A stretch of 64,000 nucleotides of DNA. It comes from an uncultured Methanosarcinaceae archaeon. GTDB taxonomy: Archaea > Halobacteriota > Methanosarcinia > Methanosarcinales > Methanosarcinaceae. Position 1 is the stretch's first letter; the number at the start of each line of letters is the position of its first letter. Under the pieces are notes generated by a model. It ran no database searches. It saw nothing but the letters and a program-made list of their open reading frames with translations, and was not told the DNA's origin. The position numbers were made by a program, and so were the translations under genes. The stretch spans positions 432,601 to 496,600 of the forward strand of contig CAVSHT010000005.1 in assembly GCA_963727895.1 (NCBI GenBank), in the 5' to 3' direction. Positions 19,242-52,871 of this stretch are shown in pieces.

Positions 19242-19931
19242 TTTATTTACCCCATATATTTGCTGTTTAGATAGCCTTCCTTTATTTTCTTAACTATCTC
19301 GCTGATTATTCGCAGCTTGACAATCCTAAAATGAACAAGTTAAAATAGAAACATACTTATAAATATAAATTTATAAAAGATTGATTATTAATAAAATGGG
19401 AATTTTTAAAAATTTAATTAATAAATTAACTATTTGGTATTGTTACTTAAATATATCTAGTTCTTTATTTCTGTATTTCATCAATAGAATAACCGAGTAC
19501 TTTAGCATTTCAAGACTTTTTTATAACACTTTGTCTTTCTTCTCAATCTTGCTAGAAAGTGCCTCAATATGCTGTTATATCCCTCAACTGTAAATGTTTC
19601 TGCTTTGGATTGAGTATGAATCGTTTCTGGAAGAAACTCTGCATATGCCCTCCAGTGATCTGTCATCACTTCTCCAATGTCTTTTTTCTTCAATTTTTCC
19701 CAGAGTAGTTTTCCAGTTTCCGTTCCTCTACTACCAAAAGAACAGTTGATGAACTTTTTCCCAACTCTATCAACAGCAATCCAGATCCAGCAATATTTTT
19801 TTTGTTACCGATGTAAGTGTGCATTTCATCCATTTCAACAATAGATATTTCATTTTCACTTTTTAGAGCCTCTAACTCCTGACCAAATTTCTTTATCCAT
19901 TTTTGGACAGAAACGTGACTTACCCCTAAAA

Positions 19932-21458
19932 CGCACATGCTTTTCTTCGAATAACAAGCACAACTAATGAAAGTACTCTCCGCCCTTTTTTTGACTATTA
20001 AGCCCTCATTACCTTGGGCAGTAAGGTTGTCTCGATTTTGGTTTTTCAAAACCGTCCTAAAACTAATCAGTGAATTGCCATCGAAGGCTCAAGTGTGACT
20101 TTGATCACGGATGCTAAATTGGCCTTTTAGGCAATTCCACTGCCCAAATAAATTTGGTGATCTAATTTGATTGAAGTAATAACAAAGCTTGTGGTTTAGA
20201 CATTCACAAACTCTTTTTCATTGCTACAATTTTCAGTAGATCTGGTGAAAAACAACAGCAACGTTTCAACAGAGATGATGAAGGAATTTTAGCCCTTAAA
20301 AATTGGGTAATATCAGAAAAATGTGATGTTGTTGCATGTGAATCAACCAGCGACTTTTGGGTTCCGATTCATGATTCATTGGTAAAGCATCTAACTGTGA
20401 TAGTTGGAAATGCGCGAGATATGAAGGTATTTACCCATACAAAAACATATAAGATTGACTCAGAAGTCATTGCACAACTTGCACTTAATAATATGATTCA
20501 GCCATCAAGAGTTTTTCCAAAGGATCATATAGATTTTAGATCATATGTTCGACTTCGGTTAACACTTGTACAAAAAAGAACAGATTTAAAAAATAAAGCT
20601 CACTCAATTCTTGCATCTGAAATTCAATTCTTGCATCTGAAATGCTACACCTGAATAATGTGCTGACAGACGTTTTTGGCAAGAATGGCAGAATGATCTT
20701 ATTAGGAATCTCTTCAGGTAAGAGTGTTGGTCAGATTATTGCAAGCCTCTCTCCAAATGTTCGGAAAAAAGCTGCTCAGATAAGAGAAATTCTTGATCGA
20801 GAAATTTCTCAAAGTGCTGCATTCAGACTTCAGATCTGTCTGAAACTCATAAAAAGTCTTGATGATGAACTCGAAGCTTTAGAAACAGAAATTTTCAATT
20901 ATGCTTCTCGAAATCATAAGCGAGAAATGGAGATTTTAATGTCAGTTCCAGGTATAGGGGAACTTGGTGCGGCAATTTTACTTGCTGAAATAGGCAACTT
21001 TAAGGATTTTTCTTCTGGAAATAAGCTTGCTTCTTGGCTTGGTCTAGTTCCTAATGTGTATCAATCTGCAGATAAATACTATAACGGCAGAATCACAAAG
21101 AGGGGATCAAAAGTAGCAAGGTGGATTCTGACACAGATTGCTCAAGCAGCAGCAAGAAAGAAGAATAGCAGGTTAAAAGAGTTTTTTAACAGAAAAAAGA
21201 AGTCGATTGGACATGCAAAAGCAATTATTGTCTTAGCAAGGAAAATTGCAACGATACTATGGCATCTTATTACAAACGATGAGATGGACGAAGATGAAAC
21301 CGGATATCAAAAGGGAGAAATCCAAAAGAGAAAGATTATTGAGACTGAGATTTTTTCGGTTGATGAACGGATTAAAATAATTAGTGAAATATTTGCGATT
21401 ATGGGGAAAAAGGATCAAGAGAGCACGTGAGGATAATCTCCTCATGTACTTTCATGCT
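19932..21458 (+). mobile_element. IS110-family element copy 1 (transposase about 20167-21430, frameshifted)
   Basis: GLDIHK, CESTS, KT(Y)KIDS DEDD RuvC-like motifs; SVPGIG, WLGLVPNVYQS, ITKRGS C-terminal motifs; junctions defined against intact IS1. Confidence 0.93.
20014..20147 (+). ncRNA. Putative bridge RNA of IS110 copy 1
   Basis: Closing stem TTGGGCAGT/ACTGCCCAA; two internal-loop arms containing target-matching CCTAAAA and donor-matching ATGCTAAA. Confidence 0.65.
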
Positions 21459-21792
21459 AAAATCTTCCTATTGAGCGAAAGCCCAATCCTTCAAGATAGA
21501 GTTGTAAAGCCTGTCTTTTTACAGAAGCGGAAAAAGCAGTTGATTTTAGCTCTACTGTATAGTTATAGCCACAATCATGACATTTGTAGCGTTGACGCCC
21601 GCCAACTATACCGTTCTTTTTGTGACTGGAACTATTACATCTGGGGCAGTTCATGAAGAAATATAGGTTCTCAGAATAAATAACTATGTTTAAGTATCAA
21701 TGCCATAATTTCAAAATAGATATATCTTATATTCGTGCAATAACTACAGGTAGAATAATCTGTAGATAAAATTAGCGACGGGTGAACCTGGA

Positions 21793-22404
21793 ATGGAGTC
21801 AACAAAAAAAGATGAAACTTTAAAAGCGCTGGTCATTATAGATATGACTAACGATTTCGTGTATGAGACATACGAACATGAAGGTACGTTATATGAAGGA
21901 AAACTTGTAGCTCCTATGGGAAAGGAAATAGTCGACAAAATAGCCAGGTTAATAATTAAAGTAATACGTGAAGGAACTGTCAGCATTATCAGGCTTCCGA
22001 AGGATCATCTCAATGCCTTTATGAATCCCGAACTTGAACTGAAAGTTGCAGAACTGGGAATCAATGAAGTATTTATAACAGGCTTGGTTGAGGAAGTTTG
22101 CATATACATTAATAGTCTGAGTTTCCTTGAAAGAGGTTTTCGAACAAATATTGTGAAAGGTTGTACAGCACCTTTTGATGAAGAAAAAGGGAGAGAGGCT
22201 TTCAGGGAACTTACAAAATGCGGAGCAAAAATGGTTGAAGATATTCCTGAAGACATAAAGGTTATCCTGCTCCTCGAAGATCAACACGATGAAAATTCCG
22301 AAGAAATAAAGTCCGGAGACTGGCCACCCCATAATATGAAAGGAACCCCTGGAGCCATGACCGTAAAGATAATCCGGGATGTGCTTGAGGGAAGGAATAG
22401 TTAA
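21793..22404 (+). CDS. Isochorismatase/nicotinamidase-family cysteine hydrolase, rearranged motif order
   Basis: IIDMTNDF (D17), K70, GLVEEVC (C103); DQH..WPPH..GTPGA at the C-terminus. Confidence 0.85.
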   Translation: MESTKKDETLKALVIIDMTNDFVYETYEHEGTLYEGKLVAPMGKEIVDKIARLIIKVIREGTVSIIRLPKDHLNAFMNPELELKVAELGINEVFITGLVEEVCIYINSLSFLERGFRTNIVKGCTAPFDEEKGREAFRELTKCGAKMVEDIPEDIKVILLLEDQHDENSEEIKSGDWPPHNMKGTPGAMTVKIIRDVLEGRNS

Positions 22405-22865
22405 AATATATCAATTTTCTACAGGGAAAAATTTCTAGCTTTCTATAACCTATTTAGATATATTAAGGGAGCCACATTTGATTATTCTCTATTCAATAAA
22501 TAGCATAAGAATCAGTTCTAATTTGAACTTTTAGTGTCTTTATTTTCAAGAATGTTTTTTGATTCCGTTTTTGTGATTTCATATTTAAACTGAATGACTA
22601 AGCTACCTACATTACTTTCAGGTGGAGTTATTGTTGGGGTAAAGATTGCCATATTTACAAATACTCCCAGAGTTATTAAGAGAAAATCATAACAACAATA
22701 ATAAAGGCAATTTTTATAGTTCCTTTATTCATAACTACCACTGATAATAAATTATGATGTATCAAGTTATGATGTCAGCTTCTCAATATGTGGTAATCTT
22801 CTTTATGCATTACAAAACTGGAAGTTTACGCATTTATTTCTGAAATCTCATACTTCTGGATCTTC

Positions 22866-24362
22866 TTAGTGGTTTTGCCTATTATTTTCATCTTCAAGGT
22901 TTTCAAAATCCTCAAAGTCCTCATTTTTGTTTTGTTTTTTAAAGGTTTTATTTTTCAGACTAAGTGCCACTATAAAAACTGCAAGTAAAAGAACTATAGG
23001 GAATCTAAAGAAATGAAGCAATTCAGGAAGCTTTATTGAATTTTCTGTAGAATTTGATTCATCTGAAGTATGATTGATTTCACTTTTTGTATTGCCAGCC
23101 ACATTGCTTGAAGAGTTTGGAACAATCTCAACTATATTTTCAGCACTTCCAGTTGTTACCAAACCTCCTTTTAGCGGCAGGTCAGTTTTTGCTTCTTTAT
23201 CGAGATATAAGTTTTTGAGTCCTTCACTTGAAAGAAAACGTGCATCTCCAAAAAGCCGTGCAAAAACTGTAGAATTCCGCTCAAAAAGATATGCTGCTCC
23301 ATCTTTACTTCCCGCAGCAAGGATCGAACTATCGCTGGAAATTGCTATGCTGTTAATGTTTCCCCTACTACTATAGTTCCAGAACTCCTTTCCTTCCATA
23401 TCAAGGACGTAAAGACTGTCATCCCAGCTTCCAGCTGCAATAAACGATTCATCTGGAGAAATTGCAACACAATAGACATCATCTTTTGTCTGGTAATCCC
23501 AGAGTTTAGTGCCTGTATTGTTAAACAGATAGACTTTATCGTCAAAACTTCCGGCTGCAAGATATGATCCATTGCTTGTTAGCGAAACACTGCTGATCCA
23601 GTAAGCAGGATTGTGAATCCACGAAAATTCTCCTTTCTTAGTGAGGAGATAAACATTATAATTAGATCCTCCGGCAGCTACATAAGTGGCTTGCGGAGTC
23701 ATACAGACGCTATTGATTACACTGCCCGTCCTTTTTTCCCATAGTTTATTTCCTCTGATGTCAAAGAGATAAATACATTGATTGGAACTGCCAGCTGTAA
23801 TATAAGATCCATCTTTAGACATGGCTATGCTTCGGATGGAATCTTTTGAATCAAAACTCCATAAAAGCTTTCCTTCTCTATTGAAAAAGTAGATCTTACC
23901 GTCTTCGCTGCCTGCTGCTACATATGAACCATCAGAAGAGATTTTAACACCATTCAGACTGCCTCCTGTTTCATAACTCCATAGCAGGTTTCCTTTTCTG
24001 TCAAAGCAGTATACTTTCTTATCATTGCTCCCTGCGGCTATAAGTGTTCCATCAGGAGAAATCGATACACTGTAGACAACGTCTCCTGTAGTGTAATTCC
24101 AGAGTTTCGTCCCCTCTAAATTAAAAAGAGAAACATTATGATCAAAGTCTCCAATTGCAAGATAGTTTCCCCCTGAAGAAAGAGAAACCGTATTGATTAT
24201 ACATCCGGTTTCACATTTGCAAAGCAGGTCAAAAGCCCCGGATTCCGAATTGTTTGTATCCTCATGATTCAGAATTACGGGGTCTGCAGTTCCTAAATAT
24301 GCAAACAGACCGAAGAGCAAAACCAGTGCTAGAAATACCCATATTCGCGCTGACTGTCCCAT
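22866..24362 (-). CDS. WD40/PQQ-like beta-propeller, secreted and membrane-anchored
   Basis: About 8 repeats of SVSISxDGxYIAAGSxDxKVYLFxxxGxxLW; signal peptide and C-terminal TM. Confidence 0.9.
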   Translation of the reverse strand: MGQSARIWVFLALVLLFGLFAYLGTADPVILNHEDTNNSESGAFDLLCKCETGCIINTVSLSSGGNYLAIGDFDHNVSLFNLEGTKLWNYTTGDVVYSVSISPDGTLIAAGSNDKKVYCFDRKGNLLWSYETGGSLNGVKISSDGSYVAAGSEDGKIYFFNREGKLLWSFDSKDSIRSIAMSKDGSYITAGSSNQCIYLFDIRGNKLWEKRTGSVINSVCMTPQATYVAAGGSNYNVYLLTKKGEFSWIHNPAYWISSVSLTSNGSYLAAGSFDDKVYLFNNTGTKLWDYQTKDDVYCVAISPDESFIAAGSWDDSLYVLDMEGKEFWNYSSRGNINSIAISSDSSILAAGSKDGAAYLFERNSTVFARLFGDARFLSSEGLKNLYLDKEAKTDLPLKGGLVTTGSAENIVEIVPNSSSNVAGNTKSEINHTSDESNSTENSIKLPELLHFFRFPIVLLLAVFIVALSLKNKTFKKQNKNEDFEDFENLEDENNRQNH

Positions 24363-24580
24363 AATAAATACAATTTAGGACTTCATTGCAAATGAATTTT
24401 TTGTAGAAGTTTCCTTTTGGGTAAATAATAAGGCAGCTCTGTCAATAGGAAAAAAGAGTAATGACCTTAAATTCATGATAAAGTTAAAAAATTCCTAAAT
24501 AAATTATAATTTACTCCTTTTTGTAGGAACAAAATATAAGGAGAAAATTATTGTTAACTATGAAATCTATTAAATTTAGT

Positions 24581-25318
24581 GGCATTGGTAAACAAAAATA
24601 GATATATATGCTTATAACATATATTTCTTCATGAACTGCCCCAGATGTAATAGTTCCAGTCACAAAAATAATGGTATAGTTGGCGGGCGTCAACGCTACA
24701 AATGTCATGATTGTGGCTATAACTATACAGTAGAGCTAAAATCAACTGCTTTTTCCGCTTCTGTAAAAAGACAGGCTTTACAACTCTATCTTGAAGGATT
24801 AGGCTTTCGTTCAATAGGAAGATTTTTAGGGGTGAGTCATGTTTCTGTCCAAAGATGGATAAAGAAATTTGGTCAGGAGTTAGAGGCTCTAAAAAGTGAA
24901 AATGAAATATCTATTGTTGAAATGGATGAAATGCACACTTACATCGGTAACAAAAAAAATATTGCTGGATCTGGATTGCTGTTGATAGAGTTGGGAAAAA
25001 GTTCATCAACTGTTCTTTTGGTAGTAGAGGAACGGAAACTGGAAAACTACTCTGGGAAAAATTGAAGAAAAAAGACATTGGAGAAGTGATGACAGATCAC
25101 TGGAGGGCATATGCAGAGTTTCTTCCAGAAACTATTCATACTCAATCAAAAGCAGAAACATTTACAGTTGAGGGATATAACAGCATATTGAGGCACTTTC
25201 TAGCAAGATTGAGAAGAAAGACAAAGTGTTATAAAAAAGTCTTGAAATGCTAAAGTACTCGGTTATTCTATTGATAAATACAGAAATAAAAAACTAGATA
25301 TATTTAAGTAACAATGCC
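24581..25318 (+). mobile_element. IS1-family element, frameshift near the insB end
   Basis: GGCATTG...CAATGCC ends; A8 slippery site between insA and insB. Confidence 0.92.
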
Positions 25319-25320
25319 AC

Positions 25321-26112
25321 TTATAAATTTGATTTTATGATAATATGCTCTTTAGGATATGCTATCTTGCTCCGCTTGCAGATAAAAGACTCCGTCATGT
25401 CAATTACCATTTGCTGTGCCAGTACTGCAGGGATGCCCATAATCAGCAGGTCTGAAGGTAACCAAGCATTTCCGGTTGGGTCAACAGGTCCAACATATGC
25501 TGAACCTTTAGGAGCATTTTCTGCCATGCCTGCAGGGAAAGCAAGCATTGTAGCACAGATAGGTCCGCCAGGCATCACTGTCTTAAAGAAAATGTCAGAA
25601 CTGTTAAACTGTGCTAGACCGCATAAGTTCCTTATTTGTTCACTGCCGGCGAACAAGATAATCGATCTGATAATTTCCAGAGAAATATCTATAGTACAGG
25701 GTCCGATAACAATGAACTTTCCAAGAGGAGTGATTTTTCCTGCACTTTTTCGGCTCTCTTCGAATAACTCAGGTGAAGCCTTTAAATGTTCGGCAGCACC
25801 ACCATGGAAGTCAGGTGTACCCACAGTCACAAAGTACTTCAGCTTTGGATGAGGTTCCCCCAATCCAGTCCAGGCAATCCCGCCGCCGCAACACTTATCG
25901 TGAGCAGCCTCTATATAAAGTAGAGGAGTATTCTCAAAAAGGGCAGAAGTATAGACTGCCTTTGCTATACAGCGGTCTACTTTGTATGATGGAACTGCTC
26001 CTTTCGGAATTTCATCCGCACCGTAGACACACAAAGAACGTAGTTTCAACCTGCCAGCTTCTATGAGCTTATTTCCAAGTTCCTTAACGTTCAGTAAATC
26101 TGTTGATGCTAT
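25321..26112 (-). CDS. DUF169-like protein
   Basis: CGGG motif and conserved Cys pattern; frame open up to an ATA at 26112 preceded by a GGTGA SD. Confidence 0.65.
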   Translation of the reverse strand: MASTDLLNVKELGNKLIEAGRLKLRSLCVYGADEIPKGAVPSYKVDRCIAKAVYTSALFENTPLLYIEAAHDKCCGGGIAWTGLGEPHPKLKYFVTVGTPDFHGGAAEHLKASPELFEESRKSAGKITPLGKFIVIGPCTIDISLEIIRSIILFAGSEQIRNLCGLAQFNSSDIFFKTVMPGGPICATMLAFPAGMAENAPKGSAYVGPVDPTGNAWLPSDLLIMGIPAVLAQQMVIDMTESFICKRSKIAYPKEHIIIKSNL

Positions 26113-26132
26113 ATAATCACCTTCAAGAAAAG

Positions 26133-26804
26133 TTATTTTTGAATCCAGTCCTTTTCCATCCAGTAATCGCAGTTATGTGCCCAATGATCTTTATTGGCAA
26201 GGATGACATGCTTGAATCGTTCTTTCCAGGCTTTATGAGCAGCTTCCTGGTCAGGGTATTGCCTTTTCTCTTCTATCGCTTTAACAAGGTCTTTTCCCAT
26301 TTTCCGAGATTTTTCAATGGCTGCTTCCAATGCTGAAGGACCCTGTGACATTGCACAGCCAACTCCTCCAATGGTGTTGCCTCCGCAGGATTTTGTGTAG
26401 TTGTTCATAATATCAAGGACAAAATCAACTTCACCGCTGCCTGCTGTGGTCAACGAAAAACCGTATTTTCCTTCAAAGAGCTGTTCATGAACCATAAGTG
26501 GACTTCTATCGAACAGTGTTTTGAGCTGTGCTGTAACATTTGTTATATAATTAGGGCTGCTCAAGATGATTCCATCTACAGCTAGCATTTTGTCCATTAC
26601 GATATTGAAATTATCTTTTATTGAGCATACACCTTTCTCATGGCAAGAATCACATGCAGTGCAATATTTGATCTTCAACTTTGCAATGTCAATAGATTCA
26701 ACTTCTGCTCCTGCTTCTGCAGCTCCTTCTAAAGCTGCATCCATCAATTTTAAAGTATTACTCTTTTTGCCTCGCGGGCTTGACAGTACACCAACTATTT
26801 TCAT
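26133..26804 (-). CDS. Iron-sulfur flavoprotein (Isf/flavodoxin family)
   Basis: SSPRGKKSNT FMN loop, CTACDSCHEKGVC cluster motif, SPNY, KTLFDR. Confidence 0.9.
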   Translation of the reverse strand: MKIVGVLSSPRGKKSNTLKLMDAALEGAAEAGAEVESIDIAKLKIKYCTACDSCHEKGVCSIKDNFNIVMDKMLAVDGIILSSPNYITNVTAQLKTLFDRSPLMVHEQLFEGKYGFSLTTAGSGEVDFVLDIMNNYTKSCGGNTIGGVGCAMSQGPSALEAAIEKSRKMGKDLVKAIEEKRQYPDQEAAHKAWKERFKHVILANKDHWAHNCDYWMEKDWIQK

Positions 26805-27067
26805 GATTACCCTCAATTTCTCTTTAAACAATATTACTGCATTCAAAAAAATTAATTCGGACTTACACACTTGAAGTAATAATCAAGTATAATTATCTTT
26901 ATATCAAGTTCACTAAATAGTTGAAAGTTTAAACTATCAACTATTTTTAGTAACTGCGGAAGTTCTCTATATTAAATCTTCATAAATAATATTTAGAATT
27001 TGCTTAAAATTGAAAGTACACAGTTGAATTGAAAAACCTCCTGGTTTTGAAAGCGATGTTTAGAGGC

Positions 27068-27820
27068 TTATGCCTCCATTTTTGAAAAAAACATTGTTCC
27101 TACCAAACAGATGATAATTGACAATGAACCCATTACCACCAAATCGCTGGAGACGCTGAAAGTGCTTATACCTGCGATTGCTCCTCTCAGACCATCAACC
27201 CCATAAGTAAGCGGATCGATCCTGCTTATAAAATAAATTGCAGGAGGCAAGTTTTTTAGAGGAAATAAAGCTCCTGAAAGGAAAAATGTAGGCATAATTA
27301 GAAAGTTCAATATCATCTGAAACCCTTGCATATCTTTCATTTGTGAAGCCATAGTGAGACCAATTCCTGTAAAGAAAATGGCTATCAAAAACATAAAAAT
27401 TAACCCAATAACAAGGCTACTTATACTGGAAATTCTGAATCCAAGAATATACGTTAGGCTAAGTACAATCAAACCCTGAATTATAGCTATAGTTGCACCT
27501 CCAAACGTTTTTCCAATCATGATCTCTGTTCTTGAAATAGGAGCTACCAGAGTTTCCTTGAGAAAACCGAATTGCCTGTCCCATATTACCTCCAGACCAG
27601 AAAAGACAGCTGTAAATAGAATTCCCATTGTGACAATTCCTGGGGCAAGAAAATCAATGTAATTTGCTCCTCCACTGACCTGAGAATACATAGGACCGAA
27701 GCCAAATCCAAAAGCGATCAAAAAAAGCATTGGTTGCCCTAGAGTACCTATAAGTCTGGCCTTGGAACGCCAATAATGTTTGAGCTGCCTCAGAGAGAGA
27801 GCGTAGATAACCTCGATCAT
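27068..27820 (-). CDS. ABC-2 type exporter permease
   Basis: FLAPGI, DRQFGFLKETLVAP, FLSGALFP, PLTYGVDGLR. Confidence 0.92.
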   Translation of the reverse strand: MIEVIYALSLRQLKHYWRSKARLIGTLGQPMLFLIAFGFGFGPMYSQVSGGANYIDFLAPGIVTMGILFTAVFSGLEVIWDRQFGFLKETLVAPISRTEIMIGKTFGGATIAIIQGLIVLSLTYILGFRISSISSLVIGLIFMFLIAIFFTGIGLTMASQMKDMQGFQMILNFLIMPTFFLSGALFPLKNLPPAIYFISRIDPLTYGVDGLRGAIAGISTFSVSSDLVVMGSLSIIICLVGTMFFSKMEA

Positions 27821-28611
27821 TATTTAATCCTCCCCATACCTCGCATCATTATTTGTTTACTTGTCCCATTATCATCACGAATGTTTTTGCCTGTTAGTTT
27901 GAGAAAAGCTTCTTCTAAGGATTCGGTTTTTGTCTGGCTCTTAATCTCTTCAACTGTTCCCAATTTTATAATTTTTCCGTGATCAATAACGGCTATCTGG
28001 TCCGCAATTGCTTCAGCTTCTTCCATGTAATGTGTTGTCAGAAAAATTGTCATATTTCTTTCTTCGTTCAGCTTTTTTATATGGTCCCATATAGAATTTC
28101 GAGTCTGAGGATCAAGGCCTACTGTAGGTTCATCAAGGAAAAGAATCTTCGGATAGTGGACAAGCGCACGCGCAATCTCAAGCCTGCGTTTCATGCCACC
28201 TGAAAAATTCTTAACATAATCTTCACGCCGGTCCCAGAGCCCGACAATTTCCAGAGCTTTCTGAATTCTGTCTTCTCTTTCTTTTTTAGGTACTTTGTAG
28301 ACAACTGCATGATAGACGATATTTTCGTAAGCTGTAAGCTCGTCATCAAGACTGGAATCCTGAAAGACTATCCCAAAAGATGCACGTGCCTTGTCCTTTT
28401 CTGTAAGAACATTGAAGCCATTGATAATTATGTCTCCAGATGTTGGTTTTAGGACAGTTGTGAGCATTTTGATGGTCGTGGATTTGCCTGCCCCGTTTGG
28501 ACCTAAAAAAGCGAAGATTGAACCTGCTTCTACATTAAAACTAATGTTTTTTACGGCTGTAAAATCATCAAATTTTTTTATAAGGGATTGGACTGAAAGT
28601 ATGTTTTGCAT
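27820..28611 (-). CDS. ABC exporter ATP-binding protein (DrrA-like)
   Basis: GPNGAGKST, FSGGMKRR, LDEPTVGLD, TTHYMEEA. Confidence 0.93.
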   Translation of the reverse strand: MQNILSVQSLIKKFDDFTAVKNISFNVEAGSIFAFLGPNGAGKSTTIKMLTTVLKPTSGDIIINGFNVLTEKDKARASFGIVFQDSSLDDELTAYENIVYHAVVYKVPKKEREDRIQKALEIVGLWDRREDYVKNFSGGMKRRLEIARALVHYPKILFLDEPTVGLDPQTRNSIWDHIKKLNEERNMTIFLTTHYMEEAEAIADQIAVIDHGKIIKLGTVEEIKSQTKTESLEEAFLKLTGKNIRDDNGTSKQIMMRGMGRIK

Positions 28612-29272: not shown

Positions 29273-29320
29273 TATTTTCACTCATAGAAATTCAGCATAA
29301 TTTATGCCATTTGAGAATTA

Positions 29321-29707: not shown

Positions 29708-30446
29708 GGCATTGATACTTAAACATAGTTATATATTATTAGAAAGTATATTTCTTCATGAACTGCCCAAAATGCAATAGTTCCAGTCACAAAAAGAATG
29801 GTATAGTTGGCGGGCGTCAACGGTACAAATGCTCTGATTGTGGCTATAACTATACAGTAGAGCTAAAATCAACTGCTTTTTCCGCTTCTGTAAAAAGACA
29901 GGCTTTACAACTCTATCTTGAAGGATTGGGCTTTCGTTCAATAGGAAGAGTTTTAGGGGTAAGTCATGTTTCTGTCCAAAGATGGATAAAGAAATTTGGT
30001 CAGGAGTTAGAGAACCTAAAAAGTGAAAGTGAGATATCTATTGTTGAAATGGATAAAATGCACACTTACATCGGTAACAAAAAAATATTGCTGGATCTGG
30101 ATTGCTGTTGATAGAGTTGGGAAAAAGTTCATCAACTGCTCTTTTGGTAGCAGAGAAATAGAAACTAGAAAACTACTCTGGGAAAAAGTGAAGAAAAAAG
30201 AGATTGGAGAAGTGATGACAGATCACTGGAGGGCATATGCAGAGTTTCTTCCTGAAACGATTCATACTCAATCAAAAGCAGAAACGTATACTGTTGAAGG
30301 ATATAACAGCATATTGAGGCACTTTCTAGCAAGATTGAGAAGAAAGACAAAGTGTGATACAAAAAGTCTTGAAATACTAAAGTACTCGGTTATTCTATTG
30401 ATGGAATAAAGAAATAAAGAACTAGATATATTTAAGTAACAATGCC
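29708..30446 (+). mobile_element. IS1-family element with 8-bp TSD, defective
   Basis: GGCATTG...CAATGCC; TSD AGAAAAAG on both sides; A7 slippery run, premature stop. Confidence 0.93.
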
Positions 30447-30491
30447 AGAAAAAGATCCAGCTCAGAAACGGATAACTCTTTAGGGGTATAT

Positions 30492-38312: not shown

Positions 38313-38323
38313 CCAACGTCCTC

Positions 38324-42659: not shown

Positions 42660-42683
42660 TTAAAACACCAAGTTTCACTTTTG

Positions 42684-44102: not shown

Positions 44103-44600
44103 TCAGCCTGGCGTACCCAGAGAATCACCAGATGCTGGCACTTCATTTCCTTTGAATTTTACCTCTTTTCCTTTGATATTCTTTTTCTTCTTGTCTTCTA
44201 GTATCGGAAGAGCCGCCATTATTCCATCAAGTATAGCCTCGGGTCTTGGACAACATCCAGGAACATATATATCTACAGGAATAACTTGATCCACCCCACC
44301 GATTACATTATAGCAGCCATGGAAGATCCCGCCTGTAGATGCACATGCTCCAATTGCCACAACAACTTTTGGATCTGGAATTTGATTATATATGTTTTTA
44401 AGCACATTCACATTTTTGTAATTTACAGCTCCTGTAACTACCATTATATCAGCTTGCTTCGGAGTACCTATATTTATAACACCAAATCTTTCAGCATCAT
44501 AAAGAGGAGTAAGACAAGCTATTACTTCAATATCACAGCCATTACAACTGTTACAATTCACGTGTAGAATCCATGGAGATTTTGATAATGCCATAAACAT
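44103..44600 (-). CDS. echC: Ech hydrogenase small subunit (EchC/NuoB-like), orphan
   Basis: CNSCNGCDIE, TPKQADIMVVTG, GACASTGG, VPGCCPRPE. Confidence 0.85.
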   Translation of the reverse strand: MFMALSKSPWILHVNCNSCNGCDIEVIACLTPLYDAERFGVINIGTPKQADIMVVTGAVNYKNVNVLKNIYNQIPDPKVVVAIGACASTGGIFHGCYNVIGGVDQVIPVDIYVPGCCPRPEAILDGIMAALPILEDKKKKNIKGKEVKFKGNEVPASGDSLGTPG

Positions 44601-44968
44601 TTCTCATTAATGTTGTTTCCATCTGAGAGGCACATGAAATTATTACATTTACCTAATGAATGCCACGCTATCTTTTTTCAATAGCGCTTTTGTGAGATCT
44701 GTTCAAACGATCTAATATCTAAGGTAGAATCTAATATCTAATTGAGTTTAACAAAAATTAAATACCATTAGATATTATAGCAACTTAATTTAGATAAACT
44801 TTAATATAAAAATGACTTTGAAATACTTCTGACTAAGAGAAAAAATCTAAAGACGAAAAATGAGCTTAAACGATAGATAATAAGACTAAAACCTATCAAA
44901 AAAATAGAATAATATATTACGAGATAGTGAAACTAACAAAAAAGTAAATTGAAGGTATTATGAGCACT

Positions 44969-45316
44969 TTATTTCACTAACTTAAGAGCTTCTCGGCAAG
45001 CAGCAACAGCCGGGGCTCCTGAGGTAATGAAAATAACATCCATGACTTCCATTATTTCTTCCTTGGTAACTCCGTGATTAAGAGCGCTCTTCATCTGTGC
45101 TACTGTACAGGACTCACACTGCTTAGATGCCACAACTGCAAGGGCCATAAGGATTTTTGTTTTTGCAGGTAGGGCCCCATCAGAAAGTAATTTTCCATCA
45201 CAACGTCTGTACTTTGTAAGAAACTCAGGATCAAGATCTTCAAGAGTTTCTAAGATATGGGGCTTAAATCCCATTTTATTTTCAATGTTATCTGCTACTG
45301 TTTTATGGTCTGCCAA
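44969..45316 (-). CDS. mdrA: CMD/AhpD-family protein disulfide reductase (MdrA-like)
   Basis: Cys39, C67xxC70 and C-terminal Cys, as I recall for M. acetivorans MdrA; follows desulforedoxin and two Cys-rich genes. Confidence 0.8.
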
Positions 45317-45490
45317 ATTATGTCACCTACCTATTAAATAATATAAGTTATAATATAAATTAATATAAATTATTTTTTATATTTTAAAGTTAATCGTTAA
45401 GTTATGACAATAAGAATATAGAGTCACAGATGAACCTTTGATTGAGCTTGTTTCATAACAAGGATGTCAAAATTTCGAAATTGACTCATT

Positions 45491-45712
45491 TTAGACGCAG
45501 CCTAGGTCTCCAATTGTGGCATCAATACATTCACGACACATCATTCTTGGGAGATCTTTCTTTAATGTCAAATGGGGTAGTGGGTACCCTCCTTTCATAG
45601 GCAGCTCTACTTCTTTAATATGCTCCATACAGAGACTTTTTCCACAGACAATACACACTCCTACTGCCTCAGTTTCCTTGTTTTCTTCAGAACAATCATA
45701 ACATTTCAGCAT
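45491..45712 (-). CDS. DUF2180-like Cys-rich small protein
   Basis: KCYDC..AVGVCIVCGKSLCMEH..CREC. Confidence 0.8.
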   Translation of the reverse strand: MLKCYDCSEENKETEAVGVCIVCGKSLCMEHIKEVELPMKGGYPLPHLTLKKDLPRMMCRECIDATIGDLGCV

Positions 45713-45722
45713 TTTTGACACC

Positions 45723-45953
45723 TCAGCAAACCTCATTAAATAGGCAATTTTCCTTCAAGGCTTCATGGCATGGACGGCACATAATCCTTTTAATGTGTTC
45801 AAGGTCAGGCTTCAGTTCAATTGGATAACTTCCTTCCCATACAGGAGTTTCCTCACGAATAAGATGATCTTTGCAAACTCCTCTACCACATGCAATACAA
45901 ATCCCAACAGCGTCAGTATCTTTGCCTTCTCTGGCGCATTCATAGCATTTCAT
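45723..45953 (-). CDS. DUF2180-like Cys-rich small protein
   Basis: MKCYEC..AVGICIACGRGVCKDH..CRPC. Confidence 0.8.
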   Translation of the reverse strand: MKCYECAREGKDTDAVGICIACGRGVCKDHLIREETPVWEGSYPIELKPDLEHIKRIMCRPCHEALKENCLFNEVC

Positions 45954-46060
45954 AAGATTTCCTCCATATAAGAAAAAATGGTTTATTTATAGAAAATTTG
46001 GTTAAATATATGAACGTACTATTTATTAATTAAATTATAGGACTATTTTAGTCATTATTT

Positions 46061-46189
46061 TTAGTCATCATTAATGAGAGTCATTTCTTGGCCACAACAA
46101 ACAAGAGTCCCTCCACCTACTTCTTTTACTACAACTTCATTACCGCAGATCTCACAAAGATATCTTTCCCCTTTAGCAGAAACATCCAT
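46061..46189 (-). CDS. Desulforedoxin (42 aa), not in the ORF track
   Basis: MDVSAKGERYLCEICGNEVVVKEVGGGTLVCCGQEMTLINDD; CxxC...CC motif; GAGGTGA SD. Confidence 0.9.
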   Translation of the reverse strand: MDVSAKGERYLCEICGNEVVVKEVGGGTLVCCGQEMTLINDD

Positions 46190-46729
46190 GAATTTTTCAC
46201 CTCAATTACCTATTTGTCAATCTAATTTGTTATTTCAAATAATATTATTACATTGGTCATCGGTTAAGGAATTTTCTTGCCTGAAAGCTATCGATTTTAC
46301 ACTAGAAGCCTGTCTTAAATCTTGGCTTATCTACATGAAATCGATACCCTGTTCCAGCTCATAATCTATTAACATATTTAACAAATGTAAAAGAAATTGA
46401 CGCAATTTGTCACGATTCCTCACTTAACCGAAGACGCATGAATTCCTTTCATATTACAGTAAATAATATTCCTAGCAGTACAATAATATTATAATTATTT
46501 TAAATTATTTCTGTGAAAAATTGCTCATCAACAAAATACTGCCTTGAATAAAATATTTTAAAGCCAAAAAATAAAATAATAGAACTAAAGTATGTCGCGT
46601 TCTGTAAAAACCCGTTTTCCTCTATTATAACATTTTATTTTAAAACTTTAATTTATAATTCTAATGCTTTTTGACATTGAATATATTGAGTTTCCATTCA
46701 AAGAAATATCGTTTCTAAAAAAGATTTTG

Positions 46730-47383
46730 AAGAATGGTATAGTTGGCGGGCGTCAAAGGTACAAATGCCATGATTGTGGCTATAACTATACAGTAGAGAT
46801 AAAATCAACTGCTTTTTTCGCTTCTGTAAAAAGACAGGCTTTACAACTTTACCTTGAAGGATTGGGCTTTCGTTCAATAGGAAGAGTTTTAGGGGTGAGT
46901 CATGTTTCTGTCCAAAGATGGATCAAGAAATTTGGTCAGGAGTTAGAGGCTCTAAAAAGTGAAAGTGAGATATCTATTGTTGAAATGGATGAGATGCACA
47001 CTTACATCGGTAACAAAAAAAATATTGCTGGATCTGGATTGCTGTTGATAGAGTTGGGAAAAAGTTCATCAACTGCTCTTTTGATAGCAGAGGAACGGAA
47101 ACTGGAAAACTAATCTGGGAAAAAGTGAAGAAAAAAGAGATTGGAGAAGTGATGACAGATCACTGGAGAGCATATGCAGAGTTTCTTCCAGAAAAGATCC
47201 ATACTCAATCAAAAGCAGAAACGTATACTGTTGAAGGATATAACAGCATATTGAGGCACTTTCTAGCAAGGTTGAGAAGAAAGACAAAGTGTTATACAAA
47301 AAGTCTTGAAATGCTAAAGTACTCGGTTATTCTATTGATGAAATACAGAAATAAAGAGATAACTATATTTAGTTAACAATACC
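46730..47383 (+). mobile_element. IS1-family element, 5'-truncated
   Basis: Begins at KNGIVGGRQRYKC; right end CAATACC. Confidence 0.9.
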
Positions 47384-48050
47384 CCTGTTTTTATTCTTTG
47401 GATTTCAAATCTTAGAAATGCTCTCATCGCCACCATAATATGTGCTCTCTGAACATTGGTCCTTCTTGCCTGACAACACTTTACTCCACAAAACCGTTTT
47501 ATTCCTCTATGATACTCTTCAATTTTCCAGACTTTTTTTGCTAACTCTTTCCTTTTTCTTACTGCAAAAGGTTTCAAGATTAAAGCCATTTACAATCTGA
47601 TGATGTTTACCACTCCATTGCCTGTAAACAAGATCAATGTGTTTGAAATAAGATTTATCGAGAACAATATCCTCGATAATAATAAATCCAGTTTCAGGAG
47701 TGATTAGATATTTTATTTGTTCCCATAAAGCCTCCGTGTCCGGAGGCTGCCTTAGAAGTAAACGAGTAAAAGAGTCCTGAGCGGCAGTGTCTCAAATTTG
47801 CTGTAAATTCAAAGTCAATTTTTTGTTTACTAAGTATAATTCCGTTCTTTCAATATTGGATTTTCAAACTGTCAACTTCTTGAAATTTAGGATTTTACCG
47901 AAAATAGGCACACTGCCGTCATGAGCTGGAATATTTGAGTCAAAATAACTGCACTTAGAAGCTTCTGTACAGATAAATACTCGTGAAGAAGCAATAAGAA
48001 AGTTGATATAATCAAGTTCAGTACATTTAGGCGGATTTATTGCGTTCAAC
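47384..48050 (-). pseudogene. IS701-family transposase remnant
   Basis: NPPKCTELDYINFLIA, PAHDSFTRLLLRQPPDTEALW, WKIEEYHRGIK. Confidence 0.8.
47783..47917. mobile_element. MITE (135 bp) inside the IS701 remnant
   Basis: GGCAGTGT...ACACTGCC ends; 9-bp TSD GTCCTGAGC/GTCATGAGC. Confidence 0.85.
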
Positions 48051-48293
48051 TCAAAGATTTTTTGATCATACCTCTAATAATATAGTAATAATTATATTTT
48101 AATATAATTTGCAGAAAAAAGATTCAACCGTGTAAGTCCTATATAGTATTATATTGTCAATACGGTAAAGCATCCGCATCCAAATATTAAATATTTGTAT
48201 CTGTCTTTAACCTATTAAATTTGAAGATAACTATATAAACTGGCGGCGGTTATTGGAGCTGGAAAATCACTAAAGAGAATAGCCACCTCTGAG

Positions 48294-48584
48294 ATGATAT
48301 CAATGGATTCAATGGAAAAAATATTTGGAAAAACCGCACAAATGACAGTTCTTAAAAATCTGATAAAAAACAAGAATGAGCCAACATATCTTTCAGGAAT
48401 AGCTGAAGAAACCGGATTATCTCATTCAAGCGTATCAAGGGTTATCGAACCTCTGGTTGCATCAGGCATTGTTCAAGAAAAGCCACTTGGTAAACAGATC
48501 CGAACTTTCCAGCTGAACATGGAAGATGAAGCAACAAACGTTATAGTAGATTTTTACAATAAAATTAATGAATTAATAAAATAA
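48294..48584 (+). CDS. Winged-helix transcriptional regulator
   Basis: YLSGIAEETGLSHSSVSRVIEPLVASGIV HTH. Confidence 0.85.
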   Translation: MISMDSMEKIFGKTAQMTVLKNLIKNKNEPTYLSGIAEETGLSHSSVSRVIEPLVASGIVQEKPLGKQIRTFQLNMEDEATNVIVDFYNKINELIK

Positions 48585-49187
48585 GTAAAGTTATATAAAA
48601 TATTGAAAGTTACTATTTCCTAATTTATTTTTTTGGTTTTTACTCCCAGTATATAAAGAGTTTACATAACTCACTGAAATAATCTTTTTGCATACTTTGT
48701 CTTCAACTATATAAAATTTCAAGGAAAATGCCATTTTTCCATAACAAATAGAAGCTACTATAAATGTTATTTTTTATACTCAATAGTTAGTGCCTAAAAA
48801 TCCAGTTAATAATTTAGGTTTTTGTGTATATAGGAAAAGGTAATGTCAGTGTGATTAAGAAAACTATAAACATTTTGATTTTAATTTATATTCCTACTTT
48901 AATTCCTATTTTATTATCAAGCTAAATGGCATTCAAAACAAACTAAGACCCATAGAATTAAATAGCTTTTATCCTTATTTCCCATGAAATCAGTGCTGGT
49001 AAGGCAGGTTATAAACTATCCAGCGCTTAAATAAATAAAATACATCATTATAATTATTTAAGCACCTTGTGATTGTTTATATTGCAAATTAATGATTATT
49101 TATTCTCAAATATTATTAAATATCATATTCAGAGCCCCGTCAAGTGGGGAATATAGTTAATTTCAAAATTTAAATTGAGGCTTAAAA

Positions 49188-49439
49188 ATGCAGTACCAGG
49201 CAACAGTTAGAATTGAACAGAAAGCGGGTATGCTTGATCCAGAAGGCACCACCACAAAAAGGGCTCTCGGACAACTTGGCTACCATGTAAGTAGTGTAAA
49301 GACTGCAAAGCTGTACGAAATAGTACTCGAAGCCGAGTCTGCCGAAATTGCAGAGCAGAAAGTTGATGAGATGTGCCAGAAACTTATCGCAAACCCGATT
49401 GTCCACAATTATACAATCAACCTCAAGGAACTTAATTAA
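49188..49439 (+). CDS. purS: FGAM synthase subunit PurS
   Basis: LDPEG, KLIANPIVHNY. Confidence 0.95.
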   Translation: MQYQATVRIEQKAGMLDPEGTTTKRALGQLGYHVSSVKTAKLYEIVLEAESAEIAEQKVDEMCQKLIANPIVHNYTINLKELN

Positions 49440-49500
49440 GCTGTGTAGATGAATGATTGAGGTGTCAGAAAAGCCAAAGATTTGAAAATTGAGGGAAAAA

Positions 49501-50199
49501 ATGAAAATTGCCATTCTTCAGTTTGGAGGCACAAATTGCGATCTGGATGTCTTGCATGTCCTTAAAGACGTAGTAGGTGTCGATGCCGAAACTGTCTGGT
49601 ACAAACAGGAAGATCTGACAAGATTTGACGGAGTTGTTGTTCCAGGGGGATTTTCCTATGGGGATTATCTCAGAGCAGGAGCAATCGCAGCTCGTACTCC
49701 AATAATGAACTCGGTCAAAAAACTTGCAGCTGAAGGTAAGCCTGTTTTAGGGATCTGCAATGGTTTTCAGATTCTTACCGAAGCCAGAGTGCTTGAGGGA
49801 GCTCTAACAACTAACGAATATCCGAAATTCAGATGTCACTGGACCAATCTCAGAGTAGAGACCGTTGATACGCCTTTTACATCGAAATTCAGGAAAGGTG
49901 AAGTTATAAGAATGCCTGTTGCCCATATGGAAGGACAGTTCTATGCCGAAGAAAAAACTCTGGCAGAGCTTGATGAAAATGAACAAGTAGTCTTCCGTTA
50001 CGTAGATGATAATGGAAAAGTAACTGATGAAGCTAATCCGAATGGATCTCTTGAAAATATTGCAGGAATTGTAAACACTTCCAGAAACATATTCGGTCTT
50101 ATGCCCCATCCTGAGAGAGCCTCCGAGTCAGTCTTAGGCTCAGACGATGGTCTGAAAATTTTTGAATCTATGGTGGATTATATTACCGATAATTTCTGA
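49501..50199 (+). CDS. purQ: FGAM synthase glutaminase subunit PurQ
   Basis: GGFSYGDYLRAG, GICNGFQIL, MPHPER. Confidence 0.97.
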   Translation: MKIAILQFGGTNCDLDVLHVLKDVVGVDAETVWYKQEDLTRFDGVVVPGGFSYGDYLRAGAIAARTPIMNSVKKLAAEGKPVLGICNGFQILTEARVLEGALTTNEYPKFRCHWTNLRVETVDTPFTSKFRKGEVIRMPVAHMEGQFYAEEKTLAELDENEQVVFRYVDDNGKVTDEANPNGSLENIAGIVNTSRNIFGLMPHPERASESVLGSDDGLKIFESMVDYITDNF

Positions 50200-50806
50200 T
50201 TATTTTCGCCTTATTTTTAATTTATTTATTTTTTGATTCATTTGTTTTTTAATTCGTTTGTCAGTAGGTTGAAACCGGCAAATCTATCCAATACTATTAA
50301 AACTTTCTAAATTTTTGATAATTTATATTCTGGCCTGAATATTGAGGATTTCTACAGAGCCGAAAAAAGGACAATAATTTAGTTTCCATACCCTCCAAGT
50401 AGTTTTATATTGTACATTAGCTATAAATCACTAAAATTGATTAAAGTCTATTTGAAGGCAGATAGTTGAAAGTCTTATGACATATGAAGAAATTATAATA
50501 ACTAGGAGTACAACTATAATAGGTACAATTTTGGGTGCAATTCTAGGATATAAGTTTTCTGGCATTGGTAATTAAAAATAGATATATATGCTTATAACAT
50601 ATATTTCTGCATGAACTGCCCAAAATGTAATAGTTTCAGTCACAAAAAGAATGGTATAGTTGGCGGGCGTCAACGGTACAAATGCTCTGATTGTGGATAT
50701 AACTATACAGTAGAGCTAAAATCAACTGCTTTTTCCGCTTCTGTAAAAAGACAGGCTTTACAACTCTATCTTGAAGGATTGGGCTTTCGCTCAATAGGAA
50801 GAGTTT

Positions 50807-52302
50807 AGCATGAAAGTACATGAGGAGATTATCCTCACGTGCTCTCTTGATCCTTTTTCCCCATAATCGCAAATATTCCACTAATTATTTTAATCCGTTC
50901 ATCAACCTAAAAAATCTCAGTTTCAATAATCTTTCTCTTTTGGATTTCTCCCTTTTGATATCCGGTTTCATCTTCGTCCATCTCATCGTTTGTAATAAGA
51001 TGCCATAGTATCGTTGCAATTTTCCTTGCTAAGGCAATAATTGCTTTTGCATGTCCAATCGACTTCTTTTTTCTGTTAAAAAACTCTTTTAACCTGCTAT
51101 TCTTCTTTCTTGCTGCTGCTTGAGCAATCTGTGTCAGAATCCACCTTGCTACTTTTGATCCCCTCTTTGTGATTCTGCCGTTATAGTATTTATCTGTAGA
51201 TTGATACACATTAGGGACTAGACCAAGCCAAGAAGCAAGCTTATCAGCAAGTAAAATTGCCGCACCAAGTTCCCCTATACCTGGAACTGACATTAAAATC
51301 TCCATTTCTAGCTTATGATTTCGAGAAGCATAATTGAAAATTTCTGTTTCTAAAGCTTCGAGTTCATCATCAAGACTTTTTATGAGTTTCAGACAGATCT
51401 GAAGTCTGAATGCAGCACTTTGAGAAATTTCTCGATCAAGAATTTCTCTTATCTGAGCAGCTTTTTTCCGAACATTTGGAGAGAGGCTTGCAATAATCTG
51501 ACCAACACTCTTACCTGAAGAGATTCCTAATAAGATCATTCTGCCATTCTTGCCAAAAACGTCTGTCAGCACATTATTCAGGTGTAGCATTTCAGATGCA
51601 AGAATTGAATTTCAGATGCAAGAATTGAGTGAGCTTTATTTTTTAAATCTGTTCTTTTTTGTACAAGTGTTAACCGAAGTAGAACATATGATCTAAAATC
51701 TATATGATCCTTTGGAAAAACTCTTGATGGCTGAATCATATTATTAAGTGCAAGTTGTGCAATGACTTCTGAGTCAATCTTATCTGTTTTTGTATGGGTA
51801 AATACCTTCATATCTCGCGCATTTCCAACTATCACAGTTAGATGCTTTACCAATGAATCATGAATCGGAACCCAAAAGTCGCTGGTTGATTCACATGCAA
51901 CAACATCACATTTTTCTGATATTACCCAATTTTTAAGGGCTAAAATTCCTTCATCATCTCTGTTGAAACGTTGCTGTTGTTTTTCACCAGATCTACTGAG
52001 AATTGTAGCAATGAAAAAGAGTTTGTGAATGTCTAAACCACAAGCTTTGTTTATGACTTAAATCAAATTAGATCGCCAAATTTATTTGGGCAGTGGAATT
52101 GCCTAAAAGGCCAATTTAGCATCCGTGATCAAAGTCACACTTGAGCCTTCGATGGCAATTCACTGATTAGTTTTAGGACGGTTTTGATAAACCAAAATCG
52201 AGACAACCTTACTGCCCAAGGTAATGAGGACTTAATAGTCAAAAAAAAGAACGGAAAGTACTTTCATTAGTTGTGCTTGTTATTCGAAGAAAAGCATGTG
52301 CG
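50807..52302 (-). mobile_element. IS110-family element copy 2 (defective transposase)
   Basis: Near-identical to 19932-21458; same 20-bp duplication, an in-frame deletion, early TAA. Confidence 0.93.
52086..52219 (-). ncRNA. Putative bridge RNA of IS110 copy 2
   Basis: Same stems and guide segments as 20014-20147; the one difference I found is in a hairpin loop. Confidence 0.65.
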
Positions 52303-52871
52303 TTTTAGGGGTAAGTCATGTTTCTGTCCAAAAATGGATAAAGAAATTTGGTCAGGAGTTAGAGAACCTAAAAAGTGAAAGTGAGATATCTATTGTTGAA
52401 ATGGATGAAATGTACACTTACATCGGTAACAAAAAAAATATTGCTGGATCTGGATTGCTGTTGATAGAGTTGGGAAAAAGTTCATCAACTGCTCTTTTGG
52501 CAGCAGAGGAACAGAAACTGGAAAACTACTCTGGGAAAAATTGAAGAAAAAAGAGATTGGAGAAGTGATGACCAATCACTGGAAAGCATATGCAGAGTTT
52601 CTTCCAGAAAAGATCCATACTCAATCAAAAGCAGAAACGTATACTGTTGAAGGATATAACAGCATATTGAGGCACTTTTTGGCAAGGTTGAGAAGAAAGA
52701 CAAAGTGTTATACGAAGAGTCTTGAAATGCTAAAGTACTCGGTTATTCTATTGATGAAATACAGAAATAAAGAGTTAAATATGTTTAGTTAACAATACCA
52801 AATATTATTCTATTTGTTGTTACAATTAATAAGAAATGTATTAATATAAGTTTTACTTCAAGTAAAATGTC

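Follow-up and report, generated by a model that had tools for sequence, protein, structure and literature searches.

How did one transposable element come to lie at the identical nucleotide of two different copies of another? The question is raised by a 64,000-nt stretch of DNA (the window) from an uncultured Methanosarcinaceae archaeon (assembly GCA_963727895.1, contig CAVSHT010000005.1), in which two copies of an IS110-family insertion sequence (IS) each split the insA gene of an IS1 element. Judging from the sequences of the passenger, its relatives and their flanks, we consider it probable that this IS110-family element chooses its site by means of a bridge RNA encoded in its left end and that it has entered many diverged IS1 copies independently. 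The assembly to which the window belongs comprises 3.67 Mb in 19 contigs, with about 36% G+C and a completeness of 84%.

An IS110 element splits two IS1 copies at the same position

The two composites in the window are made up as follows.

19436..19931, - strand: 3' part of IS1 copy A (insA past the helix-turn-helix (HTH), and the insB/DDE part); 98.4% identity over 497 nt to the uninterrupted IS1 at 24824-25319
19932..21458, + strand (recombinase sense): IS110-family element, copy A; 1527 nt, with AAA on both sides on the + strand; 98-99% identity to most of the 20 other full-length copies
21459..21708, - strand: 5' part of IS1 copy A (element end, insA start with the zinc ribbon, first half of the HTH)
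50557..50806, + strand: 5' part of IS1 copy B
50807..52302, - strand (recombinase sense): IS110-family element, copy B; 1496 nt, with the same 20-nt duplication as copy A and an internal deletion of about 33 nt
52303..52800, + strand: 3' part of IS1 copy B

On the contig (C5), the IS110 elements occupy C5:452532-454058 (copy A) and C5:483407-484902 (copy B). Read on the IS1 sense strand, both composites run ...AATAGGAAGA(T/G)TTT, then the IS110 element (AGCATGAAAGTAC...AAAGCATGTGCG), then TTTTAGGGGTAAGTC and the remaining IS1, with the recombinase gene antisense to insA in each. The insertion point corresponds to insA codons ~64-67 (..SIGRF/LGVS..) and falls within the HTH_23 match of the host 144-aa open reading frame (ORF; residues 45-87, E 2e-7). 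Empty IS1 sites carry 4 or 5 T residues and occupied sites 3+4 or 4+4, from which it follows that the same 3 nt flank the element at either end (TTT, which is AAA on the recombinase strand). A public contig that omits exactly 1530 nt (1527+3) agrees with a 3-nt repeat.

The two hosts are different variants of IS1. InsA starts with MNCPRCNSSSHKK..KCHDCGYNY in one and with MNCPKCNSFSHKK..KCSDCGYNY in the other, their left junctions read GATTTT and GAGTTT, and the hosts are 92.7% identical as against 98.8% for the passengers (gap-free columns). The first-pass annotation of this DNA had claimed that both IS110 copies (19932-21458 and 50807-52302) split insA at an identical AAA core in the same orientation, that the host copies are distinct variants (CPRC..CHDC with GATTTT versus CPKC..CSDC with GAGTTT), and that five more IS1 copies in the window keep an empty site. 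All of this stands. The five empty sites were all found by the motif AATAGGnnGnkTTTTAGGGG, which occurs 5 times in the window against a shuffle mean of 0.01 (0 of 100 shuffles reach 5).

6503..7250, - strand: uninterrupted IS1; empty site 6998-7017
24565..25319, + strand: uninterrupted IS1; empty site 24813-24832; nearest relative (97%) of the copy A host, 3 kb away
29708..30447, + strand: uninterrupted IS1; empty site 29940-29959
46730..47383, + strand: IS1 without its 5' ~140 nt; empty site 46876-46895
60456..61232, + strand: uninterrupted, more diverged IS1; empty site 60697-60716

Besides the HTH_23 match, a 63-aa ORF of the host matches DDE_Tnp_IS1 (E 4.2e-8), and a match to the InsA zinc ribbon is weak (E 0.0085). 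The ORF at 19502-19693 in IS1 copy A is the counterpart of the DDE_Tnp_IS1-matching piece, the profile having been run on the equivalent ORF of an intact copy. Between the two IS1 frames sits an A8 run, which, from general knowledge of IS1, we take to be the frameshift site. Immediately outside IS1 copy A lies a 106-aa ORF (18921-19241, - strand) with a signal-peptide-like start and tandem ..NQKNDWDRQKNSW.. repeats.

This IS1 (~750 nt) is present in 221 copies with an empty site in addition to the interrupted ones; its copies show 85-97% mutual identity and make up 4.93% of the assembly, and seven of them lie in the window. A first look returned 323 IS1 candidates in this genome versus 90 or fewer in the other searched genomes of the genus. 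IS1 of the same type, at 85-89% identity, was found in 17 of the 40 other genus genomes searched, and in two of them, G014 and G045, the same target site is present.

The insertions into IS1 are independent

Comparison of hosts with passengers reveals that the latter are much the more uniform. Identity ranges from 91.0 to 95.3% between host IS1 copies and from 93.9 to 99.4% between passengers (98.5-99.4% without one older copy). In 34 of 36 pairs the passengers resemble each other more closely than the hosts do, and host identity does not correlate with passenger identity (rho 0.09). A FastTree phylogeny was built from 204 IS1 sequences, 195 with an empty and 9 with an occupied site; on it, the 9 occupied copies require 9 changes of state, so that no two occupied IS1 copies are sisters. 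When the 9 occupied copies were combined with 45 randomly drawn from the 195 empty ones, the approximately unbiased (AU) test rejected the occupied copies as one clade (lnL difference 102.6, p=0.013). Moreover, the bases adjacent to the junction keep host-specific variants that are also found among the 221 empty sites. The element entered already-diverged IS1 copies independently, at the same site and in the same orientation genome-wide. This agrees with the initial view, formed from the two window copies, that independent site-specific insertion is favoured over a single insertion that left all interrupted IS1 copies in one clade.

The element targets a short sequence that IS1 supplies in many copies

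The census of the assembly gave 23 IS110 elements, of which 21 are full-length and 2 (on contigs C7 and C6) are internally deleted or split, with two old fragments besides; these counts are lower bounds because the assembly is incomplete. IS1 lies on both sides of 10 of the 23 elements, on the left only of six (one without a right end and one with a 13-nt IS1 remnant on the right), on the right only of four (one with only a 19-nt IS1 remnant), and on neither side of three. Mapping of the copies and their flanks, as proposed at the outset, thus places 20 of 23 beside IS1 on at least one side, and the converse possibility, that most copies lie outside IS1, does not hold. All 16 IS1-type left flanks are the 5' part of IS1 and end in ..GA(T/G)TTT(T), and all 13 IS1-type right flanks are its 3' part and start with TT(T/G)TAGGGG (12 read TTTTAGGGG and one TTGTAGGGG).

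Three copies lie wholly outside IS1, at sites reading ..(A/G)TTT/TTTTAG(G)... The non-IS1 flanks are mostly single-copy DNA, and they still read ..(A/G)TTT on the left and TTTTAG(G).. on the right. The longest open frames that touch the non-IS1 junctions span 14-70 codons; these sites look non-coding, and ORF continuity therefore cannot pair their flanks. For the one-sided copies, no correctly placed missing IS1 half was found within 8 kb. About 7 of the 23 original sites may have been outside IS1, if the one-sided elements are non-IS1 insertions that later recombined. Because three copies sit outside IS1 at look-alike sites, the specificity, as read from the sequences, is for a stretch of ~10-14 nt apparently written in the element's own RNA and not for IS1 as such.

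The motif GA[GT]TTTTAGG occurs 202 times in IS1 and 50 times elsewhere in the assembly, and GATTTT(T)AGG occurs 63 times in IS1 and 90 times outside. The dominance of IS1 among the sites is largely explained by IS1 supplying most of the good sites and by the presumed harmlessness of hitting an IS. Within IS1 there is a further preference: occupied sites are of the GAT type and GAG type in a ratio of 13:3, versus 68:142 for empty sites (odds ratio 9, p=1.6e-4), an excess that fits a GAUUUU guide.

Several copies have notable surroundings. Two inverted IS110 copies 35 kb apart, C11:229057-230585 (-) and C11:264735-266262 (+), lie one beside the 5' part of IS1 only and the other beside the 3' part only, as would be expected if an IS1-borne copy had recombined with a copy at a non-IS1 site (AAATTAGATTTT / TTTTAGGGAAATTC) and the DNA between them had been inverted. 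In a check against 24 genomes of the genus, the 0.7-0.8 kb next to these elements is not conserved, and the conserved parts farther out are not adjacent there. A sequence of ~30 nt is common to the right flank of the copy at C4:52543 (C4:54048 onward) and to the truncation point of the copy at C8:141073 (C8:142572 onward), in opposite orientation, and resembles the terminus of a further repeated element. A repeat with 68 genome hits contains the left flank of C3:101625 (C3:103146 onward). The IS110 lineage may thus sit in other repeats as well.

The left end is predicted to encode a bridge RNA whose target loop matches both target halves

RNA-guided target choice is established for IS110/IS1111 elements (PMC11208160; PMC11187229), and the bridge RNA of IS621 is built as stem, guide, stem-loop and guide (PMC11208158; PMC11208160), according to the available portions of these reports. 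The corresponding features in the window are the following.

19932..20167, + strand: non-coding left end of copy A with the predicted bridge RNA, 236 nt
near 20016-20021 and 20140-20145, + strand: predicted closing-stem strands, copy A
20031-20039 (CTCGATTTT), 20040-20053 and 20054-20063 (GTCCTAAAAC), + strand: 5' side, hairpin and 3' side of the predicted target loop, copy A
20109-20122, + strand: 3' side of the predicted donor loop, copy A
52194-52202 and 52170-52179, - strand: predicted target-loop guides, copy B

The stretch of 236 nt from the left end to the start codon is conserved among 12 left ends from different genomes, and these were folded together with RNAalifold. The comparative fold has 4 compensatory pairs among 54, and the closing stem GGGCAG/CUGCCC shows a compensatory GC->AU change in 4 of the 12 rows. 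In the first (target) module, the basal stem is GGUUG/CUAAC, the loop has a 5' side of 9 nt and a 3' side of 9-10 nt, and the hairpin between them is GGUUUUUCAAAACC, with one compensatory change. The second module is built in the same way: its stems are GAAUUGCC/GGCAAUUC and GAAGGC/GCCUUU, and it has a hairpin and, as its 3' loop side, GGAUGCUAAAUUG.

In the first loop, the 5' side (CUCGAUUUU) is the sense of the left target half CGATTTT, and the 3' side (GUCCUAAAAC) is the complement of (G)TTTTAGG(AC). The T run is common to both guide sides, which is what the published scheme demands of the core. The loop therefore has the properties of a target loop, in that its two sides match the two target halves on opposite strands, overlap on the core and covary with the target. 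In the second loop, the 3' side AUGC(U/C)AAA matches TTT(A/G)GCAT, with one covarying position (GGAUGC(U/C)AAAUU with the element end TTT/(A/G)GCATG).

Contigs of the public sequencing runs X1 and X2 contain the IS110 element together with IS1, and those of X3 contain a ~95% variant and an empty-site contig (contigs cannot show copy number). Contigs of an RNA run (X15) cover parts of the left end at ~94% identity, although such contigs are no proof of transcription.

Guides and flanks change together among relatives

The predicted guides were set beside the flanks of the same elements in this genome and at loci of related elements in other genomes (labelled L).

The window's genome: guides CUCGAUUUU / GUCCUAAAAC; own flanks (C/A/T)GATTT(T) and TTTTAGG
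L007: guides GCAGAUUUU / GUCAGAAAAC; own flanks CCGATTTT and TTTTCTG
L009: guides CUUUUCUUU / GUCAAAAAAC; own flanks TTTTCTTT and TTTTTTC
L034: 3' guide GUACAAAAAC; own flank TTTTTGA
L013 and L016: 3' guide GUAGAAAAAC; own flank TTTTTCT
L018: 3' guide GUCAGAAAAC; own flank TTTTCTG
M. spelaei, 24 loci (L053-L067, L078-L086): guides CCUUAUUUU / GUCAGAAAAC; own flanks mostly ..AGAAAA and AAATAAG.. (recombinase sense)

Matches of the right guide to its own flank number 124 over 19 elements, where shuffled pairings average 98.9 (0 of 20000 shuffles as high); for the left guide, over 11 elements, they number 66, with a shuffled mean of 57.1 (223 of 20000 as high). These figures are counts, not probabilities, and they overstate independence because the rows are related elements. 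The same correspondence can be inspected within this genome in an older diverged copy, C4:52543, whose 3' guide is UUACUAAAAC and whose own right flank is TTTTAGTA.

The IS110 relatives in G014 have other guides and lie outside IS1, though the IS1 of that genome carries the same site. No IS1 was found in the flanks of relatives at 28 other-genome loci among L006-L035, nor at a further set of 54 loci. These control genomes indicate that, of the genomes searched, the lineage of this one alone shows the link to IS1, which goes with its guide sequence.

Two relatives show features of their own. At L027 (match at 558-718), a related IS110 left-end fragment is joined via TTT to AGCATGAAAGT.., the start of the other end, which resembles a chromosomally fixed circle junction or head-to-tail arrangement; the 3' target guide there (CGCUAAAC) matches the neighbouring element end. 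In M. spelaei MC-15, at least 15 right and 9 left ends of a relative with 88-94% protein identity lie at contig ends, not in IS1, from which it appears that the element fragments that assembly.

The passenger belongs to the IS110 family and most of its copies carry a broken gene

The longest recombinase ORF (390 aa, copy C4:393025) matches DEDD_Tnp_IS110 (PF01548; E 2.5e-17, residues 9-150) and Transposase_20 (PF02371; E 3.6e-26, residues 249-334), and the window copies encode the same protein in broken form. The element ends, AGCATG.. and ..GTGCG, have no terminal inverted repeats, and the TTT core is repeated and the orientation single, as is characteristic of the IS110 family. A 10-nt subterminal repeat, ATGAAAGTAC, is placed at 3 nt from one element end but at 35 nt from the opposite one. 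The non-coding left end extends for 236 nt up to the start codon, and the other end for less than 60 nt. Named records with the closest recombinase relatives are almost all Methanosarcina.

20379..21430, + strand: broken recombinase gene of copy A; ORFs 20379-20654 (91 aa) and 20642-21430 (262 aa), with a 20-nt tandem duplication (20604-20643) between them; N-terminal part also disrupted

Copy B is likewise broken, with ORFs of 91 and 227 aa. The 20-nt tandem duplication is common to 19 of the 21 full-length copies in the assembly, many of which have further lesions. It splits the gene into a 162-aa ORF with the RuvC domain and a 262-aa ORF with the Tnp domain, which overlap by 13 nt, the second restarting at an original internal Met (..SEMLHL..). 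The ~95%-identical variant in public run X3 lacks the duplication. Copies bearing the duplication occupy many different sites, non-IS1 sites included, which implies that they moved after acquiring it, whether in trans or by means of a working two-piece enzyme. That 19 of 21 copies share the duplication points either to efficient mobilisation in trans of non-autonomous copies that carry the RNA or to a recombinase that functions in two pieces.

Weighing of the RNA-guided reading and its alternatives

Several observations weigh against choice of the site by a bridge RNA. The element at L008 fits its own flanks poorly (4/8 on each side), non-T guide positions were matched in 25 of 50 cases on the right and 10 of 22 on the left, and IS1 is not matched at the outer guide positions (CU.. 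and ..AC). On its 5' side, the donor loop offers at best an interrupted 5+3 match with no covariation, which leaves one recognisable donor guide. The single-sequence fold of the left end is no stabler than shuffles (z = -0.59), and an Rfam scan of copy A with its flanks, on both strands and with E up to 1, gave no match. No end-to-end (circle) joint was seen among the assembled contigs of the public runs, although contigs drop rare forms. Among the copies of the assembly there is no full-length recombinase gene, the 390-aa ORF of C4:393025 lacking the last 24 residues of its 414-421-aa relatives. Moreover, IS1 is hit only modestly more often than its supply of matching motifs would predict.

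The shared position and orientation might also be explained without repeated site-specific insertion. Spread of the element into empty IS1 copies by homologous recombination or gene conversion, through the ~250 and ~500 nt of flanking IS1 homology, would find more than 220 homologous partners, and the one-sided IS1 elements show that copies recombine or rearrange. In addition, the 60 nt left of the junction are 96.1% identical in occupied copies, compared with 93.7±1.0% when nine empty copies are drawn at random (1% of draws reach the same value). This likeness counts against full independence and may reflect some co-conversion, or preference for one site variant; however, it is far short of the near-identity that spread by conversion would give, as identity near the junction (96%) lies far below that of the passengers. 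The bases 1-10 nt from the junction also vary among occupied copies and match empty-site variants, for three copies and about seven single flanks the DNA is unique and not IS1, yet reads ..TTT/TTTTAG.., and relatives in other genomes occupy guide-matched sites without repeat homology. We regard conversion as a very improbable source of the pattern. A single insertion followed by copying of the 2.3-kb IS1::IS110 composite by IS1 transposase in trans is extremely improbable: the hosts are 91-95% identical while the passengers are mostly 98.5-99.4% identical, occupied copies are never sisters, one clade is rejected by the AU test, and the same short motif is found at the copies outside IS1. In its favour, the composites have intact IS1 ends, and the more than 200 IS1 copies are a possible transposase source. 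The left-flank variant GGATGATTT, which is common to three occupied copies and absent among the 221 empty sites, would likewise speak for copying; two of its three hosts, however, are just 91.9% identical.

A different alternative accepts site-specific insertion and supposes that the target is read by the recombinase protein, the complementarity of the left end being coincidental or concerned with donor-end recognition only. The argument for an RNA is drawn from sequence, a T-rich target makes short chance matches easy, and just half of the non-T guide positions match. However, recombinases of ~80% identity insert at different sequences, these differences track two loop segments in a conserved, covarying fold, and RNA-guided choice is the published behaviour of the family in the available portions of PMC11208160 and PMC11187229. 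Reading by protein is thus very unlikely in our judgement.

Comparison with known systems

As far as the available portions of PMC11208160 (Durrant et al. 2024) and PMC11208158 (Hiraizumi et al. 2024) describe IS621, the methanogen element shares with it the same two Pfam domains, a long non-coding left end upstream of the gene, and a two-module RNA in which the 5' guide is the sense of one target half and the 3' guide is complementary to the other, both including the crossover core. The core is also repeated at both ends in each case, and the insertion orientation is single. Unlike IS621, the element resides in an archaeal (Methanosarcina-type) host, has a 3-nt TTT core in place of the CT dinucleotide, has one recognisable donor guide and is known here from sequence. 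A further difference speaks against the RNA-guided reading: the flank paired by the 5' target guide (..CGATTT) abuts the 3' end of the recombinase gene and not the RNA-encoding end. By the IS621 convention, the cargo would thus be inverted relative to the crossover site.

Elements of the IS1111 group that target the terminal repeats of Tn21-family transposons are cited in PMC11187229, in its available portion, so that transposon-targeting elements of the IS1111 type are known in bacteria, as had been stated at first pass. Like the IS4321/IS5075-like members of that group, the methanogen element is a DEDD-recombinase IS with a specific target inside another mobile element, where its copies accumulate in one orientation. 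IS1111-group elements are bacterial, carry the guide RNA in a long right end downstream of the gene, target terminal repeats and have 7-17-nt subterminal inverted repeats at either end. The methanogen IS110 falls outside that group, since its long end and guides are upstream of the gene and its 10-nt repeat is asymmetric; its target lies within the HTH-coding sequence of the IS1 transposase gene, in a host element of more than 220 copies.

The closest comparison is with Methanosarcina relatives of ~80-89% identity (L007-L035, L042-L068, many of them copies in M. spelaei MC-15), which share the ends ..CATGC(T/C) and CG/CA-CACATG.., the fold and the T-run core, and whose recombinases have 414-421 aa. 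Unlike the window's element, they have guides that specify mostly T-rich sites (such as TTTTCTTT/TTTTTTG, or CTTATTT/TTTTCT for M. spelaei), and none of their inspected flanks is IS1. Our literature search returned no report of an IS110 element aimed at IS1, and the target tables in the supplements of PMC11187229 and PMC11208160 could hold a related case; nor did it return a report of bridge RNAs in Methanosarcina.

Proposed mechanism

In RNA-guided insertion as we propose it, the bridge RNA would be made and bound, and its 5' guide, (C)UCGAUUUU, being the sense of the left target half, would pair with the target's bottom strand. Both guides overlap on TTT, the putative strand-exchange point, and together they would specify CGATTT-T(T)AGG in the HTH-coding part of insA, with IS1 supplying most of the matching sites. 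Each insertion would take one orientation, leave TTT on both sides and split the IS1 transposase gene. Look-alike sites elsewhere would also be hit, and such insertions would survive in non-coding DNA. The donor is presumably a circle with the junction GTGCG-TTT-AGCATG (..CATGTGCG-TTT-AGCATGAAAG..), and most copies, their recombinase gene being broken, would have moved in trans.

IS1 copies would then serve as tolerated harbours, since hits in them should cost the host nothing. Because the site lies within the HTH_23 match of InsA, both the 'safe harbour' role and the inactivation of IS1 are reasonable inferences. As to how the target was acquired, we suggest, tentatively and with some doubt, that a few guide substitutions in an element resembling the relatives at T-rich intergenic sites (e.g. 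from the 3' guide CAGAAAAC to CCUAAAAC) reprogrammed the RNA onto the conserved HTH segment of a spreading IS1. The element would thereby have become a hyperparasite with another IS as its niche, its copy number climbing to 23 as that of IS1 grew.

Significance

The archaeal element joins an already described kind of RNA-guided, transposon-targeting IS, and the picture of the family is unchanged. On the reading proposed here, it would illustrate, in a natural setting, the retargeting of an insertion sequence by the exchange of a few nucleotides in its bridge-RNA guide: close relatives within a single archaeal genus are aimed at different sequences, and one lineage came to hit the site of a runaway IS1. 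It would also make an archaeal bridge-recombinase system available for testing, one whose core is 3 nt of T and whose cargo orientation is opposite to that of IS621. Finally, the presumed disabling of copies of one transposon by another bears on how IS expansions are checked in genomes.

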